A stretch of 64,000 bases of DNA from NCBI GenBank assembly GCA_000004985.1, contig GG738860.1. One strand, given 5' to 3'. The translations under genes were made by a program, and so were the position numbers. The notes under the pieces were generated by a model, which did no database searches, was not told the DNA's origin, and saw only the letters and a list, made by a program, of their open reading frames with translations. How positions within the stretch are numbered: the stretch's first letter is position 1; the number at the start of each line of letters is the position of its first letter. The DNA is from Naegleria gruberi (Eukaryota). Positions 43,297-45,741 of this stretch are shown piece by piece.

Positions 43297-45741
43297 ATGG
43301 CCAGAACCAAGCAAACAGCGAGAAAATCGACGGGTGGCAAAGCTCCAAGAAAACAATTGGCTTACAAAGCTAGAAAAGCAAACAGACCTTTCCCTTCCCG
43401 TTCGTTGGCAGGTCCTTTTTCTGATGAGGAAAAAGCAATTTTTGTGAATGGTTTGAAAAGAGCCTTCGATGGAAGTGAAGAATCATCAAAATTTGATGTA
43501 AATACCTATGAAGGAGCTTCACAATTAGTCAAATTTTGGATTTTCCAAGATCAAAAAAGAAGAAAATTGAAACCAATGGTAGAGGAAGCTAAATGGAATG
43601 GCAGCTTTGAATTGCTTCACAATCTTCCTATGGATATCAAGTATGAAATTATTGATTTTATTCCAACCTTTTCCTTGAGAGATTTTTACAAAATCAAGTT
43701 AGACGAATTCACTGAACAGATGAAGCTGGCACAAGTTGAAGATATTTCTAAAATTGTATGCAAAGGACTGAATTTGTTTGAAACCTTTACAAAGAGATCT
43801 TTTCAAAATTTGTACTATTCAGATCCTCTCTATAGAAACTATTACAAGAAGAGACTAATTAACAGAGAATATGCATTAAGAATGAAACAAAGGATATTGA
43901 AGTTGGATGAGTTTGATATTACAGATATTGATTATGATATTGGTTCTGTAAAGAAAGACAAACTATTGCACTTCTTTTCGTTGGTTAAGGAGATGAATGA
44001 AATTGACACTGTTGACTTTAATGATGTGGTCATTCACAGAAATATTGAAAAAATCAAGTCATTGGTAAATGGAACCACCACAAAAAGAAATGAAGATGAT
44101 TACGAGTCACCTTGTGAAGAACCAATGGATGATACTGATTCAATTAGTAATGAGCCTAATGTAACTGTATCATTTGATGAAATGGAGCTACTTTCTGAGG
44201 AAGAAATGAAAAAGTTAGAATCAAAATCTATTGCCATACTGCAGGAATCAGAAAGAGGATATTATAATACTCGTAATTACAATAAGTTTAACAAGCAAGA
44301 TAGTAAATCTTTTAGAAAGCAAGCGATGTATTCGTATGCTATACCATTGGAACTAATAGGAACTGGTGCTATTCCACAAGAACAAAATTTTACTCGTGCC
44401 TTTTCTCACGAAGAGATTATGGAAAGGCTTAAGGAGTTTATTGGAATTAATTCATCCATTAAGAAACTTTCTGTCAGAGGTCTAGATGTCGGCTTTACAA
44501 ACACTGCCATGGACATCTGTAAAGGAATAACAGATCTTTCAATACTTTTATGTGAGTACGTGGATTATTTTGAGTGCTTTAAAGAAGTCCTACCAAATCT
44601 CAACAAGCTGACTATTAATGGAGTTTCTTCTCATTACTCAATTAGTTTTATGGAAAGCTTTATGATTGAGGAATATATTCAACCTAACTGTGTTGTTGAT
44701 TTAGGGTTTGCTACAGGCACTGACACATATTTCTCGGATTTTTTAAATCGTTATGTTGAAGATCAAAACGGTAACAAGACTCCATTGAAAATTACCTCAA
44801 AACTACTCTCAACTGAAAACGTAACCGAATATGCCGACTTTTTATTGAGGTTTATAGAAGGAGTATCTTTCGGCCAATTGTTTTCTGATTTTGATATGAA
44901 AAAGAAATTGGTAGATTACTTGGTAATTGAAGTTGGCATTCCAATTGAATGGCTTACGCTTACCACAAGTGGAGATACTATAATTACAGAATACTTAGCT
45001 TATCTTTCAAATGTTTATCAAAATGGGGCAATTAATTGTCCAAGCTCTATTATGTTACGAGCAGGCTTGATTCCAAATAATATAGCCAATGAATTGGTTT
45101 TTTCTAAATATGAATGGGATGTTGTTGAGTTATGTTTAGATTATTTAAAAAAGAGAGATGATATTGATGACTTTGTTTTGACCCTTAGAAATTTGCTCGT
45201 TTTCTATGTGTGTGATAGAAGTGATTCTCCACTCTTTGAACTATATTGTTACATTAAGAAGAATATTCCAGAAAGTCAATTCAAAGAAATTTTAAAGCCT
45301 ATCAAATGTATCATTCCAGAAGGCTACAAAGAAAAGAACAATGAAACCTTGCATACAGTTTCTATTCCCATCATTTGCTTCCCATTCTCAAATTACCAAT
45401 TCGCTAAAGCTATCGTGGATGATATGACAGACGAAGATTTGAAATTTGTTAATGAGCTTGGTGACTCATGTCTGCACATTTATTCTAGACATGACCATAG
45501 TATTTGGAGTAGAATAGTTGAAAGAGTACCAGAGGTAGTCAAACTCAGCAACCCTGAGGGAGTAACACCTTTACATATTCATACTACCAATATCCAGTCA
45601 TACATATTTGTATTAGACTTGTTGACAAGATTTGGTGCTGACCCAAATGCAAAAGATATTGAAGGAAGAAAAGCTATTGGTGAATTTTTTATATTTGAGA
45701 ATGGTATTTTGAAAGTTAACAACAGATCAATGGAATATTAG
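43297..45741 (+). CDS. non-histone protein with a histone-H3 N-terminal tail, F-box-like motif and C-terminal ankyrin repeats
   Basis: ATG 43297 gives [28 protein letters not shown]..., identical to H3 residues 1-21. An uninterrupted 814-aa ORF follows with no histone fold. [24 protein letters not shown] lies at 43624-43695. ANK-like GVTPLHIH...[20 protein letters not shown] lies at 45460-45678. Confidence 0.75.
   Translation: [814 protein letters not shown]

Follow-up and report, generated by a model that had tools for sequence, protein, structure and literature searches.

Several proteins that are not histones carry short stretches resembling the N-terminal tail of histone H3, among them G9a (ARKT), influenza NS1 (ARSK), SARS-CoV-2 ORF8 (ARKS), the hepatitis delta virus (HDV) protein S-HDAg, and NOP16. 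Histone mimicry of this sort is known only as motifs of 4 to 6 residues, mostly from viruses or mammals, and its physiological relevance is often debated. PAF15/PCLAF has an H3-like N terminus (VRTK...) that is bound by the PHD finger of UHRF1 and ubiquitylated like H3. In humans, H3 N-terminal mimicry proteins (H3TMs) such as VRK1 have been described (Chen et al. 2021, PMC8166343), and once the initiator Met is gone, short mimics of this kind (A-R-T/S-K at the N terminus) are recognized in vitro by PHD and Tudor readers and by NuRD. Here, we describe a gene of the amoeboflagellate Naegleria gruberi that lies in a 64,000-nucleotide (nt) stretch of contig GG738860.1 (assembly GCA_000004985.1), hereafter the window. 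Its product, which we call the window protein, starts with 21 residues identical to the H3 tail, continues as a large protein of unrelated architecture, and belongs to a family in which this tail has been kept by selection in a subset of members.

RESULTS

A complete H3 tail opens an 814-residue protein that is not a histone

The gene occupies positions 43297..45741 on the plus strand as an open reading frame (ORF) of 814 codons, which runs without interruption to the stop codon at 45739-45741. The ORF is 100% identical to NAEGRDRAFT_48038 (XP_002678751.1, D2VAT9), deposited as "predicted protein [Naegleria gruberi]." An in-frame TGA at 43255 stands 14 codons 5' of the ATG at 43297..43299 (+), which opens a Met-Ala start. 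Because the next in-frame Met (residue 94) lies 3' of the family-conserved VKxWIxQDQ block, 43297 is the sole ATG that takes in the conserved region. The segment 43300..43362 (+) encodes residues 2 to 22, and these are identical at 21 of 21 positions to A1-A21 of canonical H3, with K4, R8, K9, S10, K14, R17, and K18 all present. A previous interpretation made from the letters of the window only (the sequence-only reading) had claimed a complete H3 N-terminal tail on a non-histone protein, and the residue count bears this out. Removal of the initiator Met before Ala is well established, and the Met-Ala-Arg-Thr-Lys start has the features by which H3 N-terminal mimicry is recognized: a small second residue, and Arg 2 and Lys 4 in mature numbering.

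The six residues that follow the tail, YKARKA (43363..43380, +), stand where H3 has TKAARKS (T22-S28) and are one residue shorter. At this position Willaertia magna protein P0007 keeps ...QLATKAARKST, and other paralogues have ASKSARN or ASKFGVRR. Since P0007 retains the longer H3 stretch, the ancestral graft plausibly extended through T22-S28, with YKARKA left over from its decay, in agreement with the parallel between YKARKA and TKAARKS that had been proposed before.

No histone fold comes after the tail, as the sequence-only reading had also stated. The window protein has no match to Pfam Histone (PF00125) at E values up to 1, a tblastn search with the H3 core (residues 40-135) found no match in the window or in the family loci L001-L003, and the predicted model shows an architecture unrelated to the alpha1-L1-alpha2-L2-alpha3 arrangement of the histone fold. 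Lacking that fold, the window protein is not a histone. Nor is the tail a product of chance: at the body's identity of ~28%, 21 identical residues of 21 would be expected with a probability of about 2.5e-12, and homologues from four species carry this tail as well, so a chance origin is excluded.

A mundane cause would be an artifact, with the tail contributed by a neighboring or misassembled H3 fragment or by a wrong gene model. There is a scaffold gap of 491 N at 42453..42943, outside the gene and 354 nt upstream of the ATG, and the public gene model can be shown to be faulty near the 3' end. However, the gene holds no N, tail and body share one uninterrupted ORF with their junction in contiguous sequence, and no histone fold is found nearby. 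The same arrangement is present in independent assemblies of W. magna, Naegleria fowleri, and Naegleria lovaniensis and in metagenome contigs, which speaks against the misassembly that the sequence-only reading had named as a possible refutation. We give an artifact practically no credence.

The imperfection of the public model concerns the other end of the gene. XP_002678751.1 (550 residues) shares the tail with our ORF, has 44921..45189 (+) spliced out, and finishes in a frameshifted KFARFLCV before its stop. GT..AG borders are present, and the supposed intron holds the conserved motif at 44989-45027. Because this segment encodes a family-wide motif and the open frame runs on into a domain shared by the paralogues, the 814-residue reading is the better model; 44921-45189 is probably coding, the annotated intron false, and the 550-residue model shortened by it. 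Alignment of the paralogues through to the C terminus agrees with the earlier claim of an uninterrupted 814-residue frame.

As a negative control, metagenomes were scanned with relaxed settings for AGA-type DNA coding for the H3 tail. All 59 loci recovered (L006-L064) are ordinary H3 genes, most of them of fungal type and none from Naegleria; 56 have the histone fold directly downstream, and the other 3 reach the contig end while still reading H3. DNA coding for the tail is thus normally followed by a histone fold, and the graft is unusual in this respect. With the three rare codons of the window tail (discussed below) fixed, the scan gave 0 matches. Two of the control loci depart from a simple H3 reading: L062 carries an intron behind K23, and L059, read straight through, leaves H3 after residue 36, with the fold still found downstream. 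A viral (giant-virus) origin was considered and rejected, as IMG/VR contained neither relatives of the family nor tail-coding DNA.

The graft recurs across a family of Naegleria and Willaertia proteins

An initial homology search returned one N. gruberi paralogue and six W. magna proteins; the other matches listed all carry PF00125. Of the six W. magna proteins, five open with the H3 tail start followed by (S/T)K, and the sixth (P0009) starts differently. In P0007, the H3 tail runs on through ...ATKAARKST. Tails were stripped before a profile (A2) was built, to avoid circularity, and an exhaustive HMMER search with this tail-less profile yielded 48 representatives at an E value of 1e-3 or better, 37 of them at 1e-10 or better. 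The exhaustive search was used to define the family set; a word-indexed search with the same profile returned just 2 proteins. Sequence identity between family bodies is 18 to 39%, mostly 20 to 29%.

Judged against shuffled controls (z score above 4), an N terminus derived from H3 is present in about 20 of the 52 sequences in the alignment. In every tail-bearer except P0164 the tail stands at residue 1, and P0164 is an alternative model of the N. fowleri gene in which 34 additional residues precede the H3-like sequence. Family members come from N. gruberi (at least 5), N. fowleri, N. lovaniensis, W. magna, and uncultured (metagenome) sources, and the family has so far been found in the amoeboflagellates Naegleria and Willaertia alone. 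Tail-bearers include N. fowleri FDP41_001350, N. gruberi NAEGRDRAFT_72320, an N. lovaniensis protein, and an ENA metagenome contig; a look for the same tail in sister species, which the sequence-only reading had recommended, therefore succeeded in W. magna, N. fowleri, N. lovaniensis, and metagenome contigs. Some members carry tails in stepwise decay (MARTKATKRR, MARTRGSIR, MARIKRG).

We built a neighbor-joining tree from the bodies, with the tail left out. One large clade of this tree is tail-less. Because the tail-bearers are spread over at least four deep subfamilies, we conclude that most of the family descends from a tail-bearing ancestor, with repeated decay of the tail since. The fusion is real, contiguous in DNA, common to homologues from four species, and older than the diversification of the family.

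Individual members show features of their own. On W. magna contig JBEGDK010000065.1, two copies (L001 10001-10058 and L003 6001-6056) have an intron of 53 to 55 nt between the Met and Ala1 of the tail. These copies are near-identical, lie a few kilobases apart in opposite orientation, and each adjoin an RCC1-repeat gene, an arrangement that points to a recent segmental duplication. A gene with a DNMT1-RFD domain (L001 21885-22908) is located ~9 kb from a tail-bearing W. magna paralogue, a proximity that is probably coincidental. Two tail-bearing N. lovaniensis proteins, P0153 (C9374_007677) and P0165 (C9374_014702), contain an inserted WGR domain at about residues 235 to 310 (Pfam E value, 7e-17) and carry the automatic UniRef name NAD(+) ADP-ribosyltransferase; the Pfam scan of the family gave no match to the PARP catalytic domain. 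The WGR domain is one of PARP-type DNA-damage proteins, and its presence would fit a nuclear role.

The amino acid sequence of the tail is held constant while its silent sites diverge

Genomic DNA was compared between the window gene and copies from W. magna (three), N. fowleri (one), and an environmental source (one). Between N. gruberi and W. magna, 8 to 10 of the 21 tail codons differ, and every change is synonymous; at four-fold sites, 7 to 8 of 11 differ between Naegleria and Willaertia. Two W. magna paralogues differ from each other at 7 tail codons and at 6 of the 11 four-fold sites. The number of replacements in the compared tails is 0. By the Nei-Gojobori method on the 21 codons, synonymous divergence (dS) is 0.68 to 1.43, and 0.86 to 1.43 between genera, at a nonsynonymous divergence (dN) of 0. 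Had replacement sites changed like silent ones, the probability of observing no replacement would be at most 7e-13. Because dN is 0 at this dS while the bodies have diverged to the low identities given above, we conclude that the tail is under long-term, strong purifying selection at the amino acid level in a subset of paralogues that includes the window gene; the same comparison indicates that the graft predates the split between Naegleria and Willaertia. Given such selection, it is very likely that the tail has a function that depends on its sequence.

Conservation is graded along the tail. Among tail-bearers, A1 is kept in 16 of 18, R2 in 17 of 18, T3 in 17 of 20, Lys or Arg at position 4 in 19 of 20, and R8 in 17 of 20, and conservation fades with distance from the N terminus to 4 of 20 or fewer by residues 21 and 22. 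Such a gradient is what would be expected if the free H3 N terminus were the key recognition element. It also bears on the idea that the tail is kept solely as a signal for the nuclear route of H3, to be recognized by importins or chaperones, with no role tied to chromatin marks. H3 tail residues 1 to 28 act as a nuclear localization signal in yeast, the tail described here is basic, disordered, and N-terminal, and tail-less or decayed paralogues retain basic N termini such as MVRTKARRPLIPRSRNKRRNNKR and MQKRALQKSKSGMKRK, as expected if charge matters in some members. Yet a basic localization signal tolerates substitution, whereas 21 residues, including G12, G13, A15, P16, Q19, and L20, have remained unchanged at a dS of ~1, and the strict residue-1 position together with the near-invariant A1-R2-T3 points to recognition of a free H3 N terminus. 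We regard a pure import signal as unlikely but worth keeping in mind.

The silent sites of the window copy have a peculiarity. Within 15 nt of the tail (43318..43332, +) there is a cluster of rare NCG codons: GCG for A7, TCG for S10, and ACG for T11. In the long ORFs of the window, these codons account for 1.7%, 4.6%, and 3.4% of the uses of their respective synonymous sets, so the sequence-only reading was numerically right to call them rare. Three NCG codons in the tail compare with 0.26 expected (P about 0.001, post hoc), and the codon fit of the whole tail, at the 8th to 12th percentile, is no outlier. Gene conversion from an H3 gene may have left this cluster, or it may have arisen by chance. 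The suggestion previously drawn from it, a recent capture of the 5' end of an H3 gene, is contradicted by the dS and dN values above and by a graft that is older than the split of the two genera.

Gene conversion could also be invoked in a stronger form, in which a functionless tail is kept identical to H3 by repeated conversion from H3 genes. The rare codons would suit such an account, as would the perfect tail of the window copy beside its decayed closest relatives, P0127 and P0152, and the variable length of H3 identity among paralogues (14, 21, or 28 residues). The count of 6 differing four-fold sites between the two W. magna paralogues, against 7 to 8 between genera, speaks the other way: because tail divergence within one genome almost equals divergence between genera, we see no sign of continuing homogenization. 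Conversion also requires homology that the decayed copies have lost, it would need to end in frame within about 66 nt on every occasion, and a neutral sequence at the start of an ORF would not remain in frame and intact across subfamilies for a dS of ~1. Neutral homogenization is therefore very improbable in our judgment.

The body combines an ankyrin domain with a conserved F-box-like module

An AlphaFold2 model computed from the 52-sequence alignment reached a mean predicted local distance difference test score (pLDDT) of 76.7 and a predicted template modeling score of 0.75; an earlier AlphaFold model from 8 sequences was uninformative (pLDDT, 47). In the later model, residues 1 to 41 (tail and linker) are disordered, with pLDDT < 50 over the H3-identical segment. 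A confident helical N-terminal module (residues 70 to 260), a disordered acidic spacer (269 to 368), a region of alternating strands and helices (390 to 503), and a helical solenoid (530 to 795) follow in that order.

The N-terminal module opens with a family-conserved helix, Y..(x6)..VKxWIxQDQ, at residues 71 to 87 (43507..43557, +), which is modeled with pLDDT above 90 and in which Y71, V78, W81, I82, D85, and Q86 are invariant in alignment A1. Residues 105 to 126 (43609..43674, +) form the first half of an F-box-like motif and the most conserved block of the family, with subthreshold PRANC and F-box matches; the stretch that the sequence-only reading had singled out as F-box-like (43624-43695, residues 110 to 133) coincides with this most conserved motif, L..LP.DIKYEII.FIPT.S. 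A variable insert, helical in the model and 20 to 86 residues long across the family, takes up 43675..43833 (+) in the window gene. The second half of the motif (43834..43905, +; residues 180 to 203) has the form (F/Y)HKMRLI.KE(F/Y)..RM..KIL, with K184, R186, I188, E191, R195, M196, K197, and I200 invariant. Taken together, the two blocks resemble F-box helices 1 to 3.

Profile searches gave partial matches for this module. Among the full-length family proteins, 2 of 52 match Pfam F-box, at E values of 0.024 or worse. The native protein P0161, which has a short linker, scores 20.5 bits (E value, 4.4e-4), equal to the gathering score, with an alignment across both blocks. When the insert was removed in silico, 9 of 26 constructs matched PF00646 (best E value, 7.5e-4), 3 matched PRANC, and 2 matched F-box-like; these matches come from artificial constructs, and the 9 F-box matches are below threshold. 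F-box and PRANC are the top Pfam families for the spliced module.

Beyond the module, the D/E-rich acidic spacer (44101..44400, +) has pLDDT < 50 at residues 269 to 300, 307 to 332, and 363 to 368. LRR (leucine-rich repeat)-like beta/alpha repeats with a period of about 23 to 29 residues are predicted at residues 385 to 505 (44449..44811, +), and the solenoid (44884..45681, +), which contains the family motif at 44989-45027, ends in ankyrin repeats. The family profile matches designed ankyrin repeat proteins (DARPins) and natural ankyrins among PDB sequences at an E value of 1e-12, and fold searches with Foldseek returned ankyrins only. On both grounds the C-terminal ankyrin domain is confirmed, and the window protein is an ankyrin-repeat protein; the ankyrin-like repeats placed earlier at 45460-45678 coincide with the ankyrin matches.

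An ankyrin body on the same chain as an H3 tail invites a further explanation, in which the ankyrin/LRR part itself receives H3 tails, for example in ubiquitylating free or excess H3, and the protein's own tail folds back as a pseudosubstrate that inhibits the protein, or joins one molecule to the next head to tail, until real H3 displaces it. Ankyrin domains can read H3 tails, as in G9a/GLP and in Legionella RomA/LegAS4, which binds H3 A1-R8 (bioRxiv 10.64898/2026.05.29.728679). Structural matches of the body include ankyrin solenoids with autoinhibitory segments (AnkB/AnkR entries), and the long flexible spacer at residues 269 to 368 would permit folding back. The model, on the other hand, leaves the tail undocked on the body, and tail-less paralogues keep the same ankyrin domain. 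Taken as one, this pair of built-in-ligand proposals is rather improbable.

The window is ordinary nuclear DNA

The window is nuclear DNA of N. gruberi, and the neighbors of the gene are ordinary eukaryotic genes: PTH2, UVSSA, MMS19, MetRS, GBP, and WD40 proteins. The gap at 42453-42943 lies within the PTH2 ORF (41968-43029, minus strand), in its N-terminal portion, and accounts for the apparent dip in GC content to 0.24 and for the presence of ORFs in three frames at 42408-42969. Tandem repeats were considered as a cause of these multiframe ORFs upstream of the gene, but none were found, and the N gap is the cause. A second N run, of 50 bases at 33395-33444, is a scaffold gap. The ORF at 50809-52470 opens with the C-terminal portion of a kinase domain (protein kinase) and continues with WD40 repeats; together with the ORF at 50195-50668 it probably makes up a single kinase-WD40 gene split by an intron.

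DISCUSSION

From the selective constraint on the tail, its fixed N-terminal position, and its disorder, we infer, with a probability of roughly 0.6, that the window protein is a functional, full-length, endogenous mimic of the H3 tail. In this proposal, removal of the initiator Met would expose Ala1, recreating the genuine H3 N terminus. The disordered tail would then be available to factors that handle the H3 tail, such as PHD, WD40, chromo, or ankyrin readers, tail-modifying enzymes, or import and chaperone factors, and the LRR/ankyrin body would link the tail-bound factor to a second partner. The F-box-like motif would probably supply a contact to Skp1-cullin, and the predicted second partner is most likely a ubiquitin ligase. 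If the protein is indeed a functional mimic, the odds that the coupling is to ubiquitylation are roughly even. The cell offers suitable counterparts, in that N. gruberi histones carry posttranslational modifications detected by mass spectrometry and writer and reader families are present (bioRxiv 10.1101/2021.11.30.470311). In humans, N-terminal mimics that match H3 over four residues are already enough for readers to bind in vitro (PMC8166343).

Several results weigh against this proposal or narrow it. About half of the family, the remaining members, has no recognizable tail, and in several paralogues the tail has decayed; the tail is for these reasons an accessory of some members and dispensable for the core function of the family. 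Position 4 is Arg (MARTR...) in about eight members, including P0122, P0127, P0152, P0153, P0154, and P0160. Arg keeps the charge but would make K4 methylation impossible, so K4 methylation is ruled out as the universal point of the mimic. Because the window tail is perfect while P0127 and P0152, the closest relatives of the protein, carry decayed tails, the window copy may have been refreshed by gene conversion from a real H3 gene, which would leave the family-level conclusion unaffected. The link to ubiquitylation depends on a divergent F-box, probable on borderline evidence, that is split by the insert. The window protein has no match to Pfam F-box (PF00646 or PF12937) at E values up to 1, the spliced F-box-like profile found no match among PDB sequences, and no F-box or LRR structure was among the top Foldseek matches. 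The F-box call made in the sequence-only reading is therefore borderline. In the leucine-rich middle part that it described, strands and helices do alternate in the model as they do in LRRs; neither the window protein nor the family matches Pfam LRR, and our LRR-like label reflects predicted secondary structure. Finally, literature searches by accession, locus tag, and topic, conducted outside subscription-only sources, found no description of the family or the phenomenon.

A more specific use of the same parts can be imagined. If the tail served as an integrated decoy on a ubiquitin-ligase receptor, it would bait pathogen effectors that bind the H3 tail, and these would be handed to a Skp1-cullin-F-box (SCF) ligase for destruction. 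The family looks like an arms-race family, because its LRR/ankyrin bodies diverge fast, its paralogues are many, and tandem duplications in W. magna are recent. In Legionella RomA/LegAS4, the ankyrin domain needs H3 A1-R8 and the SET domain K9-R17 (bioRxiv 10.64898/2026.05.29.728679), and this bipartite site (H3 A1-R17/K18) has about the same length as the conserved tail. W. magna is reported to eliminate Legionella pneumophila. The decoy idea would make the family a protist counterpart of the integrated decoys of plant NLR proteins; we hold it as a speculation with the odds well against it. In a milder version, the protein may be a natural bait-degrader that controls the cell's own readers and writers of the H3 tail.

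Whatever its partners, a complete H3 tail is kept residue for residue on non-histone proteins while silent sites are near saturation, and this is strong natural evidence that the H3 tail can have a selectable function outside the nucleosome. The family offers a tractable system for asking what reads an off-chromatin H3 tail and whether recognition of the tail is wired to ubiquitylation; N. gruberi can be cultured, and the pathogen N. fowleri has family members as well. The shared sequence also has a practical side. Because peptides such as KSTGGKAPR are common to H3 and the tail-bearing proteins, H3 tail peptides and antibodies against H3 modifications may not be specific to H3 in Naegleria and Willaertia and may report on more than the histone.

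Set beside histone H3 and its variants, the mature window protein is identical over the first 21 residues but has no histone fold, and its 814 residues belong to an unrelated architecture. H3TMs resemble it in being non-histone proteins whose mature N termini imitate H3, with Met removed, Arg at position 2, and Lys at position 4. They were found by motif search and have about 4 residues in common with H3, whereas the window protein has 21 and P0007 up to 28; here, moreover, the tail is kept across genera under measured purifying selection and defines a multiparalogue family. PAF15/PCLAF likewise has an H3-like N terminus but differs in architecture, lineage, and size, and it imitates H3 loosely where the window protein copies it exactly. 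The corresponding Pfam entry (PF15715, "PCNA-associated factor histone-like domain") gives a weak match confined to the tail (E value, 0.26; 12.5 bits against a cutoff of 23.4), which leaves the window protein outside that family. The short mimics, too, are non-histone proteins in which H3-like sequence serves to engage readers or writers of chromatin, but theirs are motifs of 4 to 6 residues, often internal or C-terminal and many of them viral, and not a complete N-terminal tail in an endogenous protist family.

For the body, the nearest likenesses are FBXL-type SCF receptors such as Skp2, with the pattern L..LP.D....II..IP, then ...(H)KMRLI.KEF..RM, and LRR-like repeats after it, and the ankyrin/PRANC proteins of poxviruses, which combine ankyrin repeats with an F-box-like motif. 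The family differs from both in that its motif is split by the 20- to 86-residue insert in most members and falls below the Pfam threshold in the window protein. We know of no FBXL or PRANC protein with an N-terminal histone tail, F-box-like motif, LRR, and ankyrin repeats in that order. The mimics compared here share 4 to 6 residues with H3; in none of them is a whole tail conserved exactly, and none marks out a family of paralogues, as the tail does in Naegleria and Willaertia.

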